Shown here: in pieces, positions 1 to 5,907 of the stretch
Numbering within the stretch: position 1 is the stretch's first letter
How the letters are laid out: the number at the start of each line of letters is the position of its first letter
Virus record (IMG/VR): IMGVR_UViG_3300045988_012538
Location: 1 to 5,907 of that record
Reading direction: 5' to 3' (one strand)
DNA from: a virus
DNA length: 5,907 nucleotides
Program-made: the position numbers and the translations under genes
The notes under the pieces: model-generated
Told to the model about the DNA's origin: nothing
What the model saw: only the letters and a program-made list of their open reading frames with translations
Database searches by the model: none

Positions 1-119
1 ATTTTTTTTGTAACGTATCCTGCAACATATCTATATGTTTCTGGCACTGCTTGTGCTATTTGTATTTGACCCATGCCCCATAGTTTTTCCAGCCATTTAC
101 TTGTGTAGTATCCGTTGTG
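1..119. repeat. Terminal direct repeat, copy 1. Overlap from linearising a circular genome; identical to 5789-5907.
   Basis: Base-by-base comparison: attttttttgtaacgtatcctgcaacat...gtgtagtatccgttgtg occurs at 1-119 and again at 5789-5907 with an offset of 5788. The Rep reading frame runs in phase through the junction. Confidence 0.97.
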
Positions 120-662
120 TTGTATCTTGTATAGGTGTTCCAGGTCTGTTGGTTGCCATCCGTACAATATCATGTGATAGTGTGGTCTTGCTGTTTGTTC
201 TCCGTATTCCCCTGCTACAAAATAGCGTAATTTGCCCCTATAAGCCTTCCTGAGACGTTTTAAGAACTTTTGAATGTCGGGATACAGTAATGTTTGGACG
301 CTTTCAGGGCGCTTCTCTCCCGGTTTCCAGACGTATTGTACTTTTCGCATGATTTCGCCTGTGTTTACTATCATGCCTGGTACATGGTCATCATCATAGG
401 TTAGTGTGATAAACCAAACTTCTTCTTTTGGATAGTCTCGTGCTTCTAATTCTATTCGTGTTGTCCAATCCTCCCTTTGTCTGATTCTGCATCCGATGCA
501 CTGTCCGCATGGTATTAGCATGATATCTTTTCTAAACATTAAATCTTCATATTTTAGCTGTTTTCCCGCTAACTGAGAATAGCGGGAGAGTGTATACACC
601 CTCCCGCTAATTTCTTTGTCGTTCGGGTTGTACAGCCTAATTAATGGCTTGTAACAACTCAC
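1..662 (-). CDS. VP4: Replication initiator VP4 (HUH rolling-circle endonuclease), N-terminal part. It continues through the circular junction into 5788..5431, for 339 aa in total if it starts at GTG 662.
   Basis: My translation of the minus strand: (GTG)SCYKPLIRLYNPNDKEISGRVYTLSRYSQLAGKQLKYEDLMFRKDIMLIPCGQCIGCRIRQREDW...VWFITLTYDD...RPHYHMILYG...WGMGQIQIAQAVPETYRYVAGYVTKK. HUH motif HYH is at 182..174. The paired catalytic tyrosines YVAGY are at 29..15. The frame is open from 671 downward, with no ATG upstream of 539. GGAGGT lies 11 nt upstream of the GTG. The ORF is absent from the track because it has no stop inside this end of the window. Confidence 0.9.
   Translation of the reverse strand, partial: MSCYKPLIRLYNPNDKEISGRVYTLSRYSQLAGKQLKYEDLMFRKDIMLIPCGQCIGCRIRQREDWTTRIELEARDYPKEEVWFITLTYDDDHVPGMIVNTGEIMRKVQYVWKPGEKRPESVQTLLYPDIQKFLKRLRKAYRGKLRYFVAGEYGEQTARPHYHMILYGWQPTDLEHLYKIQHNGYYTSKWLEKLWGMGQIQIAQAVPETYRYVAGYVTKK
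564..610. repeat. Nucleotide-level repeat and inverted-repeat cluster inside the Rep 5' coding region.
   Basis: TCCCGCTAA occurs at 564-572 and 602-610. Its complement TAGCGGGA lies between them at 580-587. The 10-nt palindrome GTGTATACAC is at 590-599. The two direct copies fall in different codon phases of Rep. Confidence 0.8.
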
Positions 663-1495
663 TTTTTGATTTCACCTCCGCCGCCGCCATGCTCTGTTCC
701 GCTTTTGCTCTTGTGCGTTTTGCTTTGCGATTTTGTTGCTTTTTCTATTGCTTTTCCGGTATCGCTTCCGATGTTTGTTAAAGCCTTTGCTAATCCATAA
801 GGCGTCATTTGCGTACTACTGAGCATCTGTTGCCAGCTTTGTGATGCGTTGTACCAGTCGCTTTTACTCCAGCTATTGCTTTCGTATGCGTTCGGTACAA
901 ATCCACCGCTTCTGCTTACTCCTAGTGCGCTACTGCTTGCAAGTCCCATGCTTGCTCCACTAATTGTTCCTGCTGAACCGCCTGGTGTGCTTGCTCCACC
1001 GTTTGCAAAGGCTAGAATTGGATTCAGTCCAGCTTTTTTCATATCTTCAACGGCTCTTTGATATGCTGTATTGCTCATGTGCTCTTGCCATTCGCGGTTT
1101 GCTAGTGCTTCTGCACTGTTGTAGTTCATTGCTACGCTGTTTTCAATGTGGTTGTATACGCCTTGCATGATTGCTTGTAAGGTGTTGTAACCCATCTGTT
1201 TTAACATGCTTTGACTGTTGTATTTGCCTTGCATGGCCGCTTCTTGCCCTTGGTATGCATATGCCTGTTTAAGCCAGTCGTTTACCTGTTGAACGTTTGT
1301 TCCTGAATGACTTCCGCTTTCTGAATGACCGCCGCCTTCGCTTGTACTGCCTCCGCTACTTTGGCTGTTACCGGTTTGACCCCATCCGCCGAATATTCCA
1401 GCAACGTCTTTTGCCGCTCCGGCGACTGTTCCGATTGTATTTGCTACGTTTCCCGCTACGTTTAAGCCGGTTAAAATTCCTGATAATACACTCAT
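659..1495 (-). CDS. VP2: DNA pilot / minor capsid protein VP2.
   Basis: 278 aa with an ATG start. It has a Gly/Ser-rich N-terminal third and the conserved microvirus VP2 core REWQEHMSNTAYQRAVEDMKKAGLNPILAF. It sits immediately after VP1, as in gokushoviruses. Confidence 0.9.
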   Translation of the reverse strand: MSVLSGILTGLNVAGNVANTIGTVAGAAKDVAGIFGGWGQTGNSQSSGGSTSEGGGHSESGSHSGTNVQQVNDWLKQAYAYQGQEAAMQGKYNSQSMLKQMGYNTLQAIMQGVYNHIENSVAMNYNSAEALANREWQEHMSNTAYQRAVEDMKKAGLNPILAFANGGASTPGGSAGTISGASMGLASSSALGVSRSGGFVPNAYESNSWSKSDWYNASQSWQQMLSSTQMTPYGLAKALTNIGSDTGKAIEKATKSQSKTHKSKSGTEHGGGGGEIKK

Positions 1496-1497
1496 TT

Positions 1498-1523
1498 AAA
1501 AATAGCCCGGATTTCTCCGGGCT
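1498..1523 (-). terminator. Hairpin plus T-run between VP1 and VP2; candidate intrinsic terminator or attenuator.
   Basis: Minus strand reads TAA GAAAGGAGGA AGCCCGGA-GAAA-TCCGGGCT ATTTTTAA ATG. This is a perfect 8-bp GC-rich stem (1504-1511 / 1516-1523) with a GAAA loop, followed by ATTTTT, in the sense orientation of the operon. Confidence 0.6.
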
Positions 1524-1533
1524 TCCTCCTTTC

Positions 1534-3207
1534 TTACAGTTTGTACAAGCCTGGCACACTGTACAATGGCATCCGTCTCGTGGTTTTGTTCGTTACTCGG
1601 ATTGCGCCGAAAAACTGCGGCTCATTCTGTACGATGAGTGTACGCGCAATTTCTTCTTTTCCTTCTGCCATCCAGCTTTGCGACAGTGTTGGTACGGCTG
1701 AATAGTAGTCGGCATAATGCCAAAAGTCCAGTGTTCCTGTTGCGTTGCTTCTCATCAGACCGCTTACTCGGTTTGGTTTCATTCTGTAGTCTGCCCAGGC
1801 TTCTTGGTATCCGAATGTATCTTCATCTGATGCTGCGCCGGTGAGCATGATTTCTTTCTTTTTTACAGGCTGCTCTCCTACGTTTGCGAACTGTGGTACA
1901 TAATAGTCCAGTCTGTCCGTTCTGCTCCAGAATCGTTCCAAGCCTTGCTGGTAACTGTGATTGTGTCGTACGCAACATACTCCGATTATAAAGCCGTGTT
2001 CTTCAAAGCTCTTTGTGAAGGAACTTTCATTGATTGGCGTTACTGACATTGCGCCAGTTTCACCGATAGGTGTGTCTGTATTGCTCTGCTGTCCGCTTGT
2101 CTGCACGATTTGGTTCATATTGACATGGTATCTGCCACCGCCAAGGTATTCCGGGATTTGTACAGTTTTATCCGAGATTACAACGTCCCACAGTGCTTGT
2201 ACCTGTTCGCGGTATCTGCTGCCGCCTCGTGCAAGTGCTTCGTAGTACTGCTGTACTGCTACCGCTTTTCTTAGGTCGTTGATGGTTGCTGCTGTTACAC
2301 TGCTGAGGTCTGCGCCTAGGTATACTACGCTATGGTCTGTGTTTGTTCCGTCTCCGATGTTTAAGTATGCTGACCCTGTGCTTCCATCTTCTGCGATTGC
2401 ATACAGTCTGTTTTTGACGTTGTCCGGGTTTGTGCTTCCGTCAAAAAAGCTGTTTGCATATAGAAGTGTCTTTTCTTCAAATTTATCATTTGTGAATCCG
2501 CTTATTTTTGCATTGCCCTGCATCGGCAGTGTCACTTCCGGGCCGCGCTGAGGGTACGGCAAACAGCTGGTAAAGTAGTCGTGGAATTTGTTTACAGGTA
2601 AGCATCTTCCTCCCTTTATTGCTTCCAGCAGTGTTCTTTCTATTTCATCATTGCTTGTGTCGAGGTATGTCACGTCCTCATCACCTGTTTTAATTACTGC
2701 CGCATTATCAACGTTTTCATCTCTGAAAAATTCGTTCCAAATTTTCACATATCCTCTGATGGGTAATGCGTTGACCTCGAATTTCCCTTTAATTTTTGTC
2801 GGTACTCCCATGTAGTCCAGGATTGAATTTTCGTATGGTAGTGCAGCTTGATTCGTACCCATTATTTTAATTTTGGGTACTTTGTATTCCTTTGTTGGCA
2901 TCCATGGCGTGTCTTCTACTTCTCCCATGAACTGTTTGAAATTATCCCATAAGATGCGATTCGGACAATAGAAGTAGTAGAAGTCGATAAATGCGTCGTC
3001 CATCACCGGATACTTTGGCGTGGTCATTCTGATGATTGCTGCCGTGTCCACGCTGAAGGTATCGCCCGGTAATACCTCATCAACATAGAATGGAATCAGT
3101 TTGCCGGAATCGAACGTTGTGAGAATATTCTGGTCGCGGTTGAACCGTGTCCTACTTGCTTTCATTTCCGGAATCTGGTTAAAGTGTCTTTCATTGTTTC
3201 GATTCAC
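1534..3207 (-). CDS. VP1: Major capsid protein VP1 (phiX174 F-like capsid family).
   Basis: 557 aa. The N-terminus HFNQIPEMKASRTRFNRDQNILTTFDSGKLIPFYVDEVLPGDTF is the hallmark microvirus capsid N-terminal block. The start codon is GTG at 3207..3205, with AAGGAGG 7 nt upstream. The first ATG (M15) would remove conserved residues. Confidence 0.95.
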   Translation of the reverse strand: MNRNNERHFNQIPEMKASRTRFNRDQNILTTFDSGKLIPFYVDEVLPGDTFSVDTAAIIRMTTPKYPVMDDAFIDFYYFYCPNRILWDNFKQFMGEVEDTPWMPTKEYKVPKIKIMGTNQAALPYENSILDYMGVPTKIKGKFEVNALPIRGYVKIWNEFFRDENVDNAAVIKTGDEDVTYLDTSNDEIERTLLEAIKGGRCLPVNKFHDYFTSCLPYPQRGPEVTLPMQGNAKISGFTNDKFEEKTLLYANSFFDGSTNPDNVKNRLYAIAEDGSTGSAYLNIGDGTNTDHSVVYLGADLSSVTAATINDLRKAVAVQQYYEALARGGSRYREQVQALWDVVISDKTVQIPEYLGGGRYHVNMNQIVQTSGQQSNTDTPIGETGAMSVTPINESSFTKSFEEHGFIIGVCCVRHNHSYQQGLERFWSRTDRLDYYVPQFANVGEQPVKKKEIMLTGAASDEDTFGYQEAWADYRMKPNRVSGLMRSNATGTLDFWHYADYYSAVPTLSQSWMAEGKEEIARTLIVQNEPQFFGAIRVTNKTTRRMPLYSVPGLYKL

Positions 3208-3602
3208 TTTTCTTCCTCCTTCACTTCAGATTCTTTTGTCGGTTCTTCCTTTGCCATTTTTTGAAGTTCTTTAAGCTTCATGGCGTTTGCCTGTGCGGTC
3301 GCTACCATGCGGTGATACTCGTGAATATTCTGCGGAAATTCGGTGATATCTACTTCTGTTCCGTTTAGTGCTCCTTCGGACAGACTTTTCAGAAACTGCG
3401 GGTCAAAACTTGCTTTCCGGACAATGTTTTTGATGTCGCATTCTTCCGCATAGCTTTCGATTTCCTGCTGTATGTCGATTGGTTCAGTTTCTTGTAACTT
3501 TTCTTTGCCTTTCTCGTCTTTTGTCCAGACGTATTGTTTTCGCATTTTTTCGCCCGGTTCAGAAAAGAAGGGCTTTCGCCCTTCTTCGTATCGTTTATTC
3601 AT
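3204..3602 (-). CDS. VP3: Internal scaffolding protein VP3.
   Basis: 132 aa, acidic and helical, located directly upstream of VP1. The segment GTEVDITEFPQNIHEYHRMVATAQANAMKLKE resembles the D-I/T-x-x-P ... A-x-N block I recall from gokushovirus VP3. GGGAGGG lies 8 nt upstream of the ATG. Confidence 0.72.
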   Translation of the reverse strand: MNKRYEEGRKPFFSEPGEKMRKQYVWTKDEKGKEKLQETEPIDIQQEIESYAEECDIKNIVRKASFDPQFLKSLSEGALNGTEVDITEFPQNIHEYHRMVATAQANAMKLKELQKMAKEEPTKESEVKEEEK

Positions 3603-3834
3603 GCGGCTTGCCCTCCCAGACCTTTTCGGTGTCGTTCGTGAATGTGCCGATTTCGTCTTCGAATACTGCCAATTTGAAGCCGGTATAGTCGCCCGGCTCC
3701 TGTCCGATAAAGGTTTTTTCGTCCTTTGCCATTACATTGCACATACGTGCAAAGGTTGCGTTGTTTTTGTTTTCGCCTACCCATGCATAGCACTTTGCTA
3801 CGTTGTCCCAGACGCCATAGTAGTTGTGTTTCAT
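3595..3834 (-). CDS. Conserved small microvirus non-structural protein (VP5-like), 79 aa.
   Basis: MKHNYYGVWDNVAKCYAWVGENKNNATFARMCNVMAKDEKTFIGQEPGDYTGFKLAVFEDEIGTF... fits the pattern Y-x-V-x-D ... N-x-x-x-A-x-R-x-F ... P-x-DY-x-L ... G-x-FD-x-x-x-G, which I recall from small gokushovirus proteins. ATG 3834 is preceded by AAAAGGAGAAAAAACA. The track's longer form starts at a GTG (3870) and would overlap the basic ORF 3851..3973. Confidence 0.65.
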   Translation of the reverse strand: MKHNYYGVWDNVAKCYAWVGENKNNATFARMCNVMAKDEKTFIGQEPGDYTGFKLAVFEDEIGTFTNDTEKVWEGKPHE

Positions 3835-3850
3835 TGTTTTTTCTCCTTTT

Positions 3851-3973
3851 TTACAGCCGGATGCCACCACGCATAGGTTTCTGGCTGAGGTTGATGTTTT
3901 TGGTTTTGCGTGCGGTTACGTTAAACATACGGCGGTCTTTTGCGCCGTTCATGGTTTTACGATGCCGTGCCAT
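3851..3973 (-). CDS. Small highly basic DNA-binding / packaging protein (phiX174 J-like, gokushovirus ORF8-like), 40 aa.
   Basis: My translation: MARHRKTMNGAKDRRMFNVTARKTKNINLSQKPMRGGIRL*. It has an Arg/Lys-rich N-terminus and the C-terminal MRGGIRL typical of these proteins. AGGGAG lies 8 nt upstream of ATG 3973. The stop TAA is followed 16 nt later by the next gene's ATG. It is below the 60-aa track cutoff. Confidence 0.72.
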   Translation of the reverse strand: MARHRKTMNGAKDRRMFNVTARKTKNINLSQKPMRGGIRL

Positions 3974-4184
3974 TGTTATACTCCCTTCTCATCAGTTCCA
4001 GTTCTATAGCGTTTGCAAATCTCTTCATTTGCCAAATTTCTTCTATCAGTCTTTTTGCATCTTCGATCTTTGACATTTTTCTAAGCATTTTGTAATTGCT
4101 ATCGATTTCTTTGTATTTTCGTGTGAGCAGTTCTTTTAGTGCTTCTTCGGTCTGGTCTCTTACGTTCCATGTTTTGTTCATCAT
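3957..4184 (-). CDS. Hypothetical helical protein, 75 aa.
   Basis: MMNKTWNVRDQTEEALKELLTRKYKEIDSNYKMLRKMSKIEDAKRLIEEIWQMKRFANAIELELMRREYNNGTAS. AAGGAG lies 7 nt upstream of ATG 4184. The track's 95-aa version starts at a TTG (4244) with no SD. I recognise no family. Confidence 0.55.
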   Translation of the reverse strand: MMNKTWNVRDQTEEALKELLTRKYKEIDSNYKMLRKMSKIEDAKRLIEEIWQMKRFANAIELELMRREYNNGTAS

Positions 4185-4188
4185 GGTT

Positions 4189-4311
4189 TTACTCCTTTTC
4201 CTTTTCGTTGATGCTATCATGCAGTGCGTGATAGATTTCGTCAAGCTTTTCCAGAATATCCATCATCAGCCGGATTGCCTGCTTGACGTCTTTAATGGAA
4301 ATCAGTGCCAT
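4189..4311 (-). CDS. Hypothetical small acidic protein, 40 aa.
   Basis: MALISIKDVKQAIRLMMDILEKLDEIYHALHDSINEKEKE*. AAAGGGGGT lies 5 nt upstream of ATG 4311. It fills the gap between the peptidase stop (4313) and the next ATG (4184) exactly. It is below the track cutoff and I recognise no family. Confidence 0.45.
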   Translation of the reverse strand: MALISIKDVKQAIRLMMDILEKLDEIYHALHDSINEKEKE

Positions 4312-4312
4312 T

Positions 4313-4702
4313 TTATACCCCCTTTCTGTATTTGCTGGTTCTCACGTCTAAGTGTACCCAACTTTTGTATACGATAATGCCGCATTCATTCGGTGTGATT
4401 TTATTCAGTTCGTTGGCAATTTCTTTTGCGCTCATTCCATTTACTCGAATGTCTGCAGCCATACCGCACATATGGTAACTGTATCTTGCTCCCCCGCATT
4501 TCTTGTTCCACTCTGGTGTTCTGTATCCGCTGGTGATGATGACAGGTTTTTCTGTTTTGTTTCTGAGAATGTCTAAGATTGATACGAGGTGTTCGTCTAT
4601 AAATACTACTTGAGAGCCGTCTTTACATGCAAATTCTTTTACTTTAAAGTGCTGTCCTACTTTTTCGTTTGCGTCTCTTGCCATGAAATAGCTTTTAATC
4701 AT
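4313..4702 (-). CDS. Peptidase M15 family zinc D,D-/L,D-peptidase (cell-wall hydrolase, putative endolysin), 129 aa.
   Basis: The sequence SGYRTPEWNKKCGGARYSYHMCGMAADIRVNG ... WVHLDVR matches the M15A/VanY-like signature: SGYR..N..GG..S.H-x6-D, plus a second HxD. The track start at 4711 is a TTG. ATG 4702 has GAAGG about 9 nt upstream and overlaps the upstream stop as ATGATTAA. Confidence 0.85.
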   Translation of the reverse strand: MIKSYFMARDANEKVGQHFKVKEFACKDGSQVVFIDEHLVSILDILRNKTEKPVIITSGYRTPEWNKKCGGARYSYHMCGMAADIRVNGMSAKEIANELNKITPNECGIIVYKSWVHLDVRTSKYRKGV

Positions 4703-4877
4703 TTTCGTCAACCTTCTTTACTTCCGTTATTTCGTATCTGTCAAGCCCGTGCCCCGTTTCGTCGATTAACCGTTGTACAGTAACGTTTCTTGCGTCTACA
4801 GGGTCAATCGCGACAACCATATAGCAATCGTGGATTTTTTCAGTGTTATTGTATACGTACACGTTGTATCTCTTCAT
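4695..4877 (-). CDS. Hypothetical protein, 60 aa; first gene downstream of the large intergenic region.
   Basis: MKRYNVYVYNNTEKIHDCYMVVAIDPVDARNVTVQRLIDETGHGLDRYEITEVKKVDEND. It has an ATG start with GAAAGGA 12 nt upstream. Its stop overlaps the peptidase start. I recognise no family. Confidence 0.55.
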   Translation of the reverse strand: MKRYNVYVYNNTEKIHDCYMVVAIDPVDARNVTVQRLIDETGHGLDRYEITEVKKVDEND

Positions 4878-4908
4878 GGCATTGCACCATCCTTTCCCCT
4901 TCTATTTT

Positions 4909-4920
4909 ATTATATGTCAA
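4909..4920 (-). promoter_or_regulatory. Candidate sigma70/sigmaA-type promoter element for the gene string.
   Basis: Minus strand reads TTGACATATAAT. A consensus -10 TATAAT (4914..4909) directly abuts a consensus TTGACA (4920..4915), about 32 nt upstream of ATG 4877. The two hexamers are not at canonical 17-bp spacing, so only one can act in a given promoter. Confidence 0.35.
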
Positions 4921-5061
4921 TAGCTTTTAAAAGGGTTTTTGCGTTTTGTAATAATTTTGTAACCAGCCTGTACTCCTTTGTTTTGAATGGCGCTTTAGCG
5001 CCTTGCCGTATGGAGCGCAGCGGAATTCGGCTGAATCCGTTCCTTTTTAGCGCTGTGCGCG

Positions 5062-5228
5062 TTTTCAACACTTTTAACACTTTCAACAGGTTTTCCACAA
5101 AATGTTGCACAAATGTTTTCGTCATTTTGACGGACTTTCAACATTTCAACAAATTTTCAACAAAACTTTCAACAGTATTTTTCGCTTTTTTCCTACGTTT
5201 TAGCGTTAAATTTTAGTACTTTTCAACT
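5062..5228. repeat. Array of same-orientation TTTCAACA 9-mers; iteron-like, resembling DnaA boxes.
   Basis: Copies: TTTTCAACA 5062, CTTTTAACA 5071, CTTTCAACA 5080, TTTTCCACA 5091, CTTTCAACA 5135, ATTTCAACA 5143, TTTTCAACA 5154, CTTTCAACA 5166, TTTTCAACT 5220. Spacings within each cluster are 8-12 nt. Confidence 0.85.
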
Positions 5229-5271
5229 TTTTCACTATCTCTACTACTACTCCTACAACAAGTTAATATTA

Positions 5272-5318
5272 TATCGCGCGTGCGCGCGTGCGCGCTATCG
5301 CGCGTGTGCGCACGTGCG
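5272..5318. repeat. GC-rich, strictly alternating pyrimidine-purine (CG/TG) tract forming an imperfect 20-bp inverted repeat.
   Basis: Sequence: TAT-CGCGCGTGCGCGCGTGCGCGC-TAT-CGCGCGTGTGCGCACGTGCG. The alternating runs are 5275-5295 (21 nt) and 5299-5318 (20 nt). The 11-nt direct repeat TATCGCGCGTG occurs at 5272 and 5296. Arms 5275-5294 and 5299-5318 pair as 16 Watson-Crick plus 4 G-T on the + strand. Confidence 0.9.
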
Positions 5319-5324
5319 AATTAG

Positions 5325-5358
5325 CTTACTTGATAGACTGGATAGACTGAATAGGCTG
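5325..5358. repeat. CTTACTTGATAG 12-mer (copy 1) leading into three tandem 9-mers.
   Basis: GATAGACTG is at 5332-5340, GATAGACTG at 5341-5349 and AATAGGCTG at 5350-5358. The 12-mer CTTACTTGATAG at 5325-5336 recurs exactly at 5398-5409. Confidence 0.9.
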
Positions 5359-5382
5359 ATACATGGAGCCTTTAGACGACAA

Positions 5383-5425
5383 TCACCTAGCCCAGTTCTT
5401 ACTTGATAGGTACTGGGCTAGGTGA
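5383..5425. repeat. Perfect 14-bp inverted repeat with a 15-nt loop; candidate origin stem-loop and/or Rep 3' structure.
   Basis: TCACCTAGCCCAGT (5383-5396) and ACTGGGCTAGGTGA (5412-5425) are exact reverse complements. The loop TCTTACTTGATAGGT carries copy 2 of the 12-mer. The structure lies 5 nt from the Rep stop codon (5431-5433). Confidence 0.85.
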
Positions 5426-5430
5426 CACCG

Positions 5431-5907
5431 TTAAAGTGTCCCCCTCTTCTTCATCTGCTTCTTTATCACTCTTTCTTTTGTCTTGCATTGTTCTGCAAAG
5501 TCTGTGTTTTCATACTTTAGCCTGTTTTCTGCGATTGCTGCTGCTTGTCTGTTCTGTTTAATTCTCCACAATCTTTGTGGGTTTTCTGCTTCCATCATTT
5601 TTTCATAATAACGTGGAATTTGTGCGTGTTTGCCGTTTGTGCATTGGATGTATCCTTGTCTCCAGATTTCTGCTTTGTGTTCTTGATAGTAGTGGTCTCC
5701 TAAGCCTGGCTTAAGGCTCATACATGCGAAAGGCTTTGTTTGCCCTAGTTCGTAGTATATGTTTGCTTTTTGGCCGTCAATTTCGTACATTTTTTTTGTA
5801 ACGTATCCTGCAACATATCTATATGTTTCTGGCACTGCTTGTGCTATTTGTATTTGACCCATGCCCCATAGTTTTTCCAGCCATTTACTTGTGTAGTATC
5901 CGTTGTG
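5431..5907 (-). CDS. VP4: Replication initiator VP4, C-terminal part. It is 5'-truncated by the window end, and 5789-5907 duplicates 1-119.
   Basis: The track ORF 5431..5862 (MGQIQIAQAVPETYRYVAGYVTKKMYEIDG...) is in frame with the 1..662 segment: 662 + 358 nt = 1020 nt = 340 codons. YVAGYVTKK is the superfamily I Rep two-tyrosine motif, comparable to phiX174 protein A. Confidence 0.93.
   Translation of the reverse strand, partial: HNGYYTSKWLEKLWGMGQIQIAQAVPETYRYVAGYVTKKMYEIDGQKANIYYELGQTKPFACMSLKPGLGDHYYQEHKAEIWRQGYIQCTNGKHAQIPRYYEKMMEAENPQRLWRIKQNRQAAAIAENRLKYENTDFAEQCKTKERVIKKQMKKRGTL
5789..5907. repeat. Terminal direct repeat, copy 2; identical to 1-119.
   Basis: Same comparison as copy 1. 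It implies a circular unit of 5,788 nt. Confidence 0.97.

Follow-up and report, generated by a model that had tools for sequence, protein, structure and literature searches.

Repeats in the non-coding region of a gut gokushovirus belong to a conserved cassette laid out like the DnaA unwinding region of Oscillospirales chromosome origins

A dense array of short direct repeats is located in the sole large non-coding region (4878-5430, from the Rep stop codon to the next gene) of IMG/VR virus record IMGVR_UViG_3300045988_012538, positions 1 to 5,907. This stretch of 5,907 nucleotides (nt) was analyzed at its full length and is called the window below. It is the genome of a gokushovirus of the human and animal gut type, and the question raised by the array is which protein the repeats serve in such a small single-stranded-DNA phage. 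The repeats were found to be the distal part of a fixed cassette of about 215 base pairs (bp), located at 5062-5274. Judged from the sequence, the repeats are probably host DnaA boxes of an Oscillospirales variant, TTTTCAACA, and the cassette is probably an unwinding module of the kind known as incC or basal unwinding system (BUS), at which host DnaA would open the replicative form of the phage.

Nine TTTCAACA-type copies, the number counted in an earlier sequence-only reading, were present at 5063-5228, all on the plus strand. The 8-mers started at 5063, 5072 (TTTTAACA), 5081, 5092 (TTTCCACA), 5136, 5144, 5155, 5167 and 5221 (TTTCAACT). Exact TTTCAACA was found in six of the nine copies and the TTTCAAC core in seven, the latter as that reading had reported. 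The spacings within the clusters were 9, 9 and 11 nt and 8, 11 and 12 nt, in agreement with the near-helical 8-12 nt described there. TTTCAACA is the commonest 8-mer of the genome, and the opposite strand is without an exact copy. Chance was modelled by 2000 first-order Markov simulations of the 5788-nt genome. Exact TTTCAACA copies per strand had a mean of 0.36 and a maximum of 3 in the simulations, compared to six observed, and the largest one-mismatch cluster in 170 nt had a mean of 1.5 and a maximum of 4, compared to nine observed. The two clusters of the earlier description were recovered. The copy at 5220-5228, regarded there as an outlier, was instead found to be a member of a proximal pair of boxes. 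This pair had been overlooked, together with the triplet run and the AT-rich stretch that follow it. What had been described as an iteron array appears to extend to a complete and conserved origin-unwinding cassette of the host type, with the following parts:

5062-5099, plus strand: putative distal DnaA-box cluster 1, four head-to-tail boxes (TTTTCAACA at 5062-5070, cTTTTAACA at 5071-5079, cTTTCAACA at 5080-5088 and TTTTCCACA at 5091-5099)
5100-5134, plus strand: spacer between the distal clusters, with a small inverted repeat cgtca-ttt-tgacg at 5120-5132
5135-5174, plus strand: putative distal DnaA-box cluster 2, four exact TTTCAACA boxes starting at 5136, 5144, 5155 and 5167
5220-5237, plus strand: putative proximal tandem box pair, TTTTCAACT at 5220-5228 and TTTTCACTA at 5229-5237
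5241-5255, plus strand: putative DnaA-trio run CTA CTA CTA CTC CTA (CTACTACTACTCCTA), which is 3'-GAT GAT GAT GAG GAT-5' on the minus (coding) strand
5256-5274, plus strand: conserved CAACAAG followed by AT-rich TTAATATTATAT (5263-5274), candidate unwinding element

The positions of these parts were compared in 125 distinct gokushovirus cassettes with 7-14 boxes each. Counted from the first triplet, boxes started at -12 and -20, at -74, -86, -97 and -105, and at -149, -160, -169 and -178. The last four positions, those of cluster 1, were conserved, and cluster 2 occupied its four positions in about 90 of the 125 cassettes. TTTTCAACA and TTTTCCACA interchange at the fourth position of cluster 1 among relatives, and likewise in host origins, and the 8/11/12-nt spacings of cluster 2 are shared with host dnaA-dnaN spacers. 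The distance from cluster start to cluster start was 73 nt in the window, about seven helical turns, and 63-64 or 73-75 nt in other lineages, a difference of about one helical turn. Within the proximal pair, TTTTCAACT has one mismatch to TTTTCAACA, and TTTTCACTA has two, or a 1-nt deletion compared to the TTTTCCACT of relatives. At the proximal position (-20, -12) relatives carried TTTCAACAcTTTCAACA or TTTTCAACtTTTCCACA, with TTTCAACA or TTTCCACA as the second box; the counterpart in host origins is TTTCAACAgTTTCAACA, immediately upstream of the trios. The trio run of the window begins 12 nt (5229-5240) past the better proximal box and 3 nt past the weaker one, and is of the same type and orientation as the trios of Oscillospirales origins. 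TTAATATTATATC (5263-5275) was the second least stable 13-mer among 5788 positions, and the 35-nt segment 5240-5274 ranked 14th for low duplex stability. Directly past the AT-rich stretch, at 5275-5320, a GC tract of alternating purines and pyrimidines (cgcgcgtgcgcgcgtgcgcgc...gcgcgtgtgcgcacgtgcg) was observed, which is prone to Z-DNA or cruciform formation. The tract is present where the cassette is downstream of Rep; in two genomes with an inverted cassette (L115 and L074) it is on the other side of the cassette.

The conservation of the cassette among phages was examined in several sets of genomes. The non-coding region matched 52 GenBank gokushovirus records, in which it is mostly unannotated. 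Positions 5061-5274 matched even genomes without other megablast-level similarity and were the best-conserved non-coding stretch in the GenBank phages. When IMG/VR was scanned for groups of three TTTCAACA copies at short distances, at least 119 loci were obtained. Among the matches listed, most were gokushoviruses of 5.3-6.1 kb, with Rep 37-96% and capsid 40-91% identical to those of the window. When 80 relatives were selected by capsid only, the array was found in 69 and the full box-plus-trio ending in 68, and the remainder were mostly incomplete contigs. The order of parts was constant in aligned relatives: cluster 1 (3-4 boxes), a spacer of about 36 nt with a small inverted repeat, cluster 2 (4 boxes), a spacer of about 46 nt, two adjacent boxes, 0-4 mostly G/C bases, 3-6 CTA triplets and CAACAAGTTA(A/T)ATA, the last of which followed the trios in nearly all relatives. 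A strict pattern, consisting of an exact box followed within 16 nt by CTA-type triplets, was found in 61 of 79 relatives (4-6 trios) versus none of 1580 shuffled genomes, and the spacer past the last exact box was 0-4 nt in 44 of the 61. Absence of the motif from the intergenic regions of relatives had been named as a finding that would count against a regulatory array; the motif was present and conserved in 125 distinct gokushovirus genomes.

The orientation and location of the cassette varied between lineages. In phages with a Rep at least 45% identical to that of the window, the cassette is found downstream of Rep, with TGTTGAAA on the coding strand. Where Rep is 37-44% identical, it is placed between VP2 and Rep, and the coding strand carries TTTCAACA. 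L115 and L074 (IMG/VR; Rep 93-94% identical) have the whole cassette inverted in place, between the GC tract and a conserved element corresponding to 4973-5062. The cassette behaves as a movable block. Since its orientation varies while neighbouring elements stay fixed, it acts on double-stranded DNA and not as a packaged-strand or RNA signal. Its occurrence in both orientations, before and after Rep, is compatible with a module to which protein binds as double-stranded DNA. In more distant lineages (for example L003, L010 and L098), the cassette between VP2 and Rep was found about 18 nt from a hairpin, just upstream of the Rep start.

A version of the cassette with the canonical box (TTATCCACA plus trios) gave 76 matches in viral contigs, nearly all of them in large contigs, and only one, chance-like, in a microvirus. 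Because the canonical-box version is essentially absent from viral contigs, the cassette is specific to this phage group and box type. In the first scan, many of the tandem TTTCAACA arrays from giant-virus and other large contigs were coding repeats (period 9 or 12) and were set aside. Irregular TTTCAACA triplets or larger arrays, apparently non-coding, were also observed in non-microvirus contigs of 15-44 kb from IMG/VR, mostly from the same gut dataset (L018, L033, L043, L070, L078, L084 and L108); L043 has three copies followed by TTTTCCACA, like the window. Other phages of the same hosts may use DnaA boxes too.

The same box was found at bacterial chromosome origins. Bacterial genomes, one per species, were scanned for a triplet of boxes with unequal spacings, plain tandem coding repeats being excluded, and at least 120 loci were obtained. 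Among the matches listed, the loci were overwhelmingly from Oscillospirales or unresolved Clostridia (about 85 of 120 by record titles). The taxa were Oscillospiraceae, Ruminococcus, Ruminococcaceae, Acutalibacteraceae, Faecalibacterium, Gemmiger, Subdoligranulum, Butyricicoccaceae and Caproiciproducens, and cultured isolates were included. The triplet was located directly downstream of an open reading frame (ORF) of about 450-500 amino acids with DnaA motifs in 29 of the 120 loci listed. Pfam confirmed DnaA in all five loci tested and DnaN just past the spacer in all four tested. By eye, the ORF after dnaN opened with FSADGFRN or FEADGFRN in L139, L192 and L209, which we take to be RecF-like. 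The dnaA-dnaN spacer, in which the triplet is located, is the classical position of the Firmicute origin. The density of TTTCAACA was 13.2 per kb in dnaA-dnaN spacers versus 0.29 per kb in the remainder of these loci; ascertainment accounts for three boxes per locus, and without them the excess was still about 30-fold. Among the TTWTNNACA 9-mers of the spacers, TTTTCAACA occurred 162 times, TTTTCCACA 16 times and the canonical TTATCCACA not at all. Just before dnaN the spacers typically ended with TTTCAACA-g-TTTCAACA-cccc-CTACTACTACTACTA, and long AT-rich DNA came next. TTTCCACA and TTTCAACA were interchanged at the same position between closely related origins (L166 and L139), as in the phages.

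By its place in these spacers, TTTTCAACA is likely the DnaA box of this Oscillospirales clade. A link to DnaA had been suspected in the sequence-only reading and is strengthened by these results, as the DnaA-box positions in the chromosome origins of Oscillospirales are occupied by this very type of box. The description of the motif as one base away from the DnaA-box consensus was right as to the link and understated the likeness, since TTTTCAACA appears to be the consensus of the likely host clade itself. A related sequence, TT(T/A)TCAACA, was proposed earlier as the DnaA-box consensus of mollicutes (PMC3322544). In the bacterial loci a stereotyped unit, TTTCAACA-n-TTTCAACA-nnnt-TTTCAACA (mostly -gagt- or -tagt-), often began within about 10-40 nt of the dnaA stop codon. 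The box triplet was also seen immediately upstream of mraZ (Pfam MraZ, E 1.2e-33), beside GTGG-type repeats, in L144 (1857-1885) and L217, and in other conserved non-coding contexts (for example L133, L149, L210 and L224). These sites suggest an additional role of DnaA as a transcription factor at many loci of this clade.

The DnaA proteins of these loci were compared to those of E. coli and B. subtilis. The E. coli sequence used was what we take to be the DnaA C-terminus, and roles have reportedly been assigned to His439 and Pro423 of DnaA (Fujikawa et al. 2003). The B. subtilis DnaA C-terminus was confirmed by alignment to PDB 8BTG. In all 27 proteins examined, the recognition helix read RDHSTIVY or (K/R)(N/D)HSTMT..., versus RDHTTV(I/L)HA in E. 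coli and B. subtilis. An example of the variant helix is (K/R)(N/D)HSTMTIHY, and the proline of SLP(E/K)IG is replaced (for example in L139 3567-4955 and L192 3167-4582). Thr435, which is among the affected residues, contacts bases (PMC13451751). A changed box preference is plausible because the recognition helix differs, including at the base-contacting Thr435.

The layout of the cassette was compared to that of the BUS, in which a tandem pair of DnaA boxes is followed by a short G/C spacer, by DnaA-trios (3'-GAT-5' on the opposite strand) and by an unwinding region (PMC8287927; PMC6669920). At least three trios within 16 bp of a box define the system, and the distribution of spacers peaks at 10-13 bp (PMC8287927). 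A BUS box may have up to two mismatches to the species consensus (PMC8287927), and TTTTCAACT has a single one. For the optional second tandem box, between the first box and the trios, up to four mismatches are allowed, and TTTTCACTA has two. From the better box to the first trio there are 12 nt in the window, within the 16 bp allowed. Five consecutive trios of the type 3'-NAN-5' (consensus 3'-GAT-5') are present on the correct strand, where three suffice, and an AT-rich element follows in the form of TTAATATTATATC, which is short at about 13 bp. The location is different: a BUS is found at the chromosome origin, typically beside dnaA/dnaN, whereas the cassette is found between the Rep stop codon and the next gokushovirus gene. 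The cassette can be called BUS-like, as it appears to have all sequence hallmarks in the same order and orientation, but it is no chromosomal origin. In the incC region of B. subtilis, the orientation of proximal boxes 6 and 7 is essential, and the distal box acts at variable distance; additional DnaA reaches the proximal site from the distal boxes by looping, and the distal boxes still work at altered distances and orientations (PMC6669920). The BUS/incC of Firmicute oriC (Richardson et al. 2016/2019, Pelliciari et al. 2021) and the cassette have in common tandem proximal boxes of fixed orientation, a short spacer, at least three GAT trios, AT-rich DNA and further upstream boxes at roughly helical distances, and the layout of the cassette is identical to that of Oscillospirales dnaA-dnaN spacers. 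Unlike the BUS/incC, the cassette is in a 5.8-kb single-stranded-DNA phage away from dnaA/dnaN, has the clade-variant box TTTTCAACA, and has an AT-rich stretch of about 13 bp beside a GC tract. It is also without a second box cluster like the one upstream of dnaA that autonomous oriC plasmids of B. subtilis need.

From this layout we infer that DnaA binds and melts the cassette and that the phage makes use of the opening, as follows. The incoming strand would first be converted to the double-stranded replicative form, and the boxes of the latter would be filled by host DnaA-ATP. The proximal pair would nucleate a DnaA oligomer, which would grow along the 3'-GAT-5' trios on one of the strands (the coding strand here), and the distal clusters would supply extra DnaA, probably by means of a DNA loop. 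The adjacent AT-rich DNA would then melt, the opened stretch being 5241-5274. The likeliest use of the opening would be in replication of the replicative form, either to initiate it or to assist it. Recruitment of the host helicase-loading pathway, resulting in replisome assembly on the replicative form, could achieve this, as could opening or extrusion of a nearby candidate Rep hairpin (5383-5425), so that the HUH-type Rep can nick. The opening could also have no role in replication, and the boxes would then serve in DnaA titration or promoter control only. Either of the first two uses is favoured over the third because the trios and their spacing are rigidly conserved, and both would link phage replication to the DnaA-ATP state of the growing host.

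Several observations weigh against a DnaA unwinding module in this phage. Replication of the phiX174 type needs no DnaA, and the benefit to the phage is not obvious. We infer the binding of DnaA to TTTTCAACA from the place of the motif in origins. The proximal boxes of the window itself are imperfect, with one and two mismatches; they fall outside the strict pattern and inside the looser published BUS definition. The AT-rich stretch of about 13 bp abuts a GC-rich tract and is far shorter than in host origins. The cassettes of L115 and L074 are directed away from the Rep hairpin, which weakens the version in which the cassette helps Rep to nick. The bacterial set and the first viral set were selected by motif, which is only partly offset by the set chosen by capsid. 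Microvirus genes were present in none of the 120 bacterial loci listed, so that these loci offer no prophage link to Oscillospirales, and the proposed host link is one of box type alone.

The cassette could also be a working DnaA-dependent origin. Helicase loading and theta replication of the double-stranded form by the host replisome could then occur without Rep, in the manner of an oriC plasmid, and would give a plasmid-like carrier state in Gram-positive gut Oscillospirales beside the rolling-circle lytic mode. We regard this as possible but unlikely. Several theta-type plasmids and phages with their own initiator, such as P1 oriR, F, pSC101, RK2 and R6K, carry host DnaA boxes in their origins. 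Like these, the gokushovirus is a mobile replicon with its own Rep plus host DnaA boxes, and in these replicons the host initiator aids opening or helicase delivery. However, these replicons replicate by the theta mode and have Rep iterons and one to few boxes, whereas the gokushovirus has a rolling-circle HUH Rep, about ten boxes with trios, and no evident Rep iterons.

The boxes might instead bind DnaA as a sink or regulator, either to block host initiation by titration or to let DnaA switch a phage promoter in the AT-rich stretch. Plasmids with B. subtilis incC inhibit chromosomal initiation, from which the name is derived (PMC6669920), and the box triplets at non-origin host sites, as upstream of mraZ, indicate that DnaA is probably a transcription factor as well. 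Dense non-origin boxes, as in E. coli datA, the DnaA-box clusters of B. subtilis and incC incompatibility, could lower free DnaA, and a multicopy cassette could do the same. A TATAAT is present on the coding strand within the AT-rich stretch, but no good sigma-70-type promoter using it was found in a consensus scan, and the promoter and terminator scan gave only weak matches, none accounting for the array. Titration loci are without trios or an unwinding element, whereas the cassette has both. Titration and promoter control would work without trios and without a fixed orientation and 0-4-nt spacing between proximal boxes and trios, yet nothing in the cassette is conserved more rigidly than these features, and we consider a sink or regulator rather improbable. 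Another Oscillospirales protein that co-occurs with origins, such as Spo0A or a response regulator binding direct repeats, is a much weaker candidate. The 0A box TGTCGAA is one base from the TGTTGAA core of the repeats, 0A boxes overlap DnaA boxes in B. subtilis oriC, phage phi29 uses 0A boxes, and box triplets were found at many non-origin sites. On the complementary strand, however, the copies read TGTTGAA, TGTTAAA or TGTGGAA, none with the CGA of the TGTCGAA (TGNCGAA) core. The motif also fills exactly the two box positions beside the host trios, where it alternates with TTTCCACA, a sequence that is no 0A box. The spacers are without a canonical DnaA box, and the origins would be nearly box-free if TTTTCAACA were not a DnaA box.

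The remaining explanations need no DnaA acting on double-stranded DNA. Iterons of the phage's own Rep (VP4), suggested in the sequence-only reading, would position Rep near its nick site, and as in the pMV158 bind locus, geminiviruses and circoviruses the direct repeats share the non-coding region with a conserved-loop hairpin, the candidate nick site. Such iterons co-vary with Rep and are private to the replicon, whereas the same 8-mer is kept across Reps of 37-96% identity, is identical where Rep is only 37-40% identical, and is common in the chromosomes of the listed loci without microvirus genes. Trios accompany the motif, and its distance and orientation to the hairpin vary; Rep iterons are therefore very unlikely. 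The sequence-only reading had also pointed to hairpin-presented DnaA boxes that prime the complementary strand. The A site of the ABC primosome reportedly is such a DnaA box in a single-strand hairpin (Masai and Arai). This explanation shares with the DnaA module a single-stranded replicon using DnaA, the motif is DnaA-box-like, and the phage needs a complementary-strand origin somewhere. An A site needs a hairpin duplex box on one specific strand, and the cassette has neither. The copies are direct repeats, no inverted copy is available to form a duplex box, and folding of the region compared to shuffled sequence was better on neither strand (z -0.67 and -1.63). A strand-specific single-strand signal is ruled out because the strand that carries the cassette, viral or complementary, differs between lineages, and a better strand-specific candidate adjoins at 4973-5062; we give this explanation scarcely any weight. 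Least credible of all is that the repeats reflect a repetitive peptide, LKVLKVLK, of a real 71-amino-acid gene at 4910-5125. An ATG-initiated coding-strand ORF does overlap cluster 1, but cluster 2, the proximal boxes and the trios are outside it. The reading frame was not kept among relatives: equivalents had 30-75 amino acids and three C-terminal frames and were absent in L116, L009, L004, L057 and the inverted genomes. The ORF had no Pfam or PHROG match. The array is thus non-coding, as had been argued before.

No paper linking Microviridae, gokushoviruses or microviruses with DnaA boxes, and none linking DnaA-trios to a phage element, was found in full-text searches, subscription-only literature being outside their reach. 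A literature search on the motif alone gave primers and barcodes only, and the earlier impression that such an array had not been described in gokushoviruses was borne out. We know of no DnaA boxes in a rolling-circle single-stranded-DNA phage, and of none with trios. Textbook replication of Microviridae is that of phiX174, which depends on a phage-encoded Rep together with the host's Rep helicase and PriA primosome and needs no DnaA. A rigidly conserved host-type unwinding module in hundreds of genomes of gut gokushoviruses suggests a DnaA-dependent step, which could be a second replication mode or interference with host initiation. The clade-specific box TTTTCAACA, which is absent from canonical origins, would provide a sequence-based host assignment for a very common group of uncultured phages of the human and animal gut. 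It points to a Gram-positive Oscillospirales host (Ruminococcus, Oscillospiraceae, Faecalibacterium or relatives). Microviruses of Gram-positive bacteria are barely documented according to the main survey of the family (PMC9239249). As a by-product, the likely DnaA box and the origin layout of Oscillospirales were defined, together with a DnaA recognition helix that departs from the canonical one.

Two further elements were observed in the non-coding region:

5383-5425, coding-strand loop CTATCAAGTAA: hairpin with a 14-15-bp stem just after the Rep stop codon, candidate Rep nick site
4973-5062, minus (coding) strand: structured element of about 90 nt, with 90-100% identity in lineages with a Rep only about 40% identical

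A hairpin with loop ATCAAGTA, ATCAAGAAG or AGACAAGTA in coding-strand orientation was present in nearly all of 34 lineages examined, and the hairpin of the window is likely the Rep nick site and a candidate Rep origin. The AT-rich end of the cassette faces the hairpin in both main architectures, at about 18 nt where the cassette is upstream of Rep and about 110 nt in the window. A strict need for the cassette to face the hairpin is counted against because of the two inverted genomes. The loop 12-mer CTTACTTGATAG (plus strand) was repeated outside the hairpin at 5326-5337, and GATAGACTG was repeated beside it. The element at 4973-5062 was always in coding-strand orientation, even where the cassette was flipped or moved. 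RNAalifold predicted three hairpins with compensatory changes for it from 24 sequences (pairs 44-61 GC15/AU9, 45-60 UA14/CG10 and 69-82 GC17/AU4/GU3). It had no Rfam match and is a candidate strand-specific element, for example a complementary-strand origin, or an RNA.

The first 119 nt of the window recur at its end (1-119 = 5789-5907), a terminal redundancy that shows the genome to be a circle of 5788 nt. The break is within the Rep gene, which is why Rep appears split in ORF lists. The nearest GenBank records were 'Gokushovirus WZ-2015a' and 'Human gut gokushovirus', with about 84% identity. Every recognisable gene was on the minus strand, and the array therefore reads TGTTGAAA on the coding strand. 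The genes were:

5431 through the junction to 539, minus strand: Rep/VP4, 298 amino acids
659-1495, minus strand: VP2
1534-3207, minus strand: major capsid protein VP1 (Pfam Phage_F, E 2.5e-135)
3204-3602, minus strand: VP3
3595-3870, minus strand: VP5
minus strand: two small ORFs
4313-4711, minus strand: M15 peptidase, 132 amino acids (Pfam Peptidase_M15_3, E 2e-23; PHROG endolysin)

An Rfam scan of the whole window gave no match in the cassette region. One match was obtained elsewhere, Termite-leu at 538-612 on the minus strand, which was sub-threshold (21.6 bits versus a gathering score of 51, E 0.34). Between VP2 and the Rep start it spans an inverted repeat (cccgctaa...agcggg / ctcccgct), and it is probably just a hairpin. 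An M15 peptidase is also annotated in GenBank relatives of this gokushovirus. The enzyme is a cell-wall hydrolase, which fits a thick-walled host.

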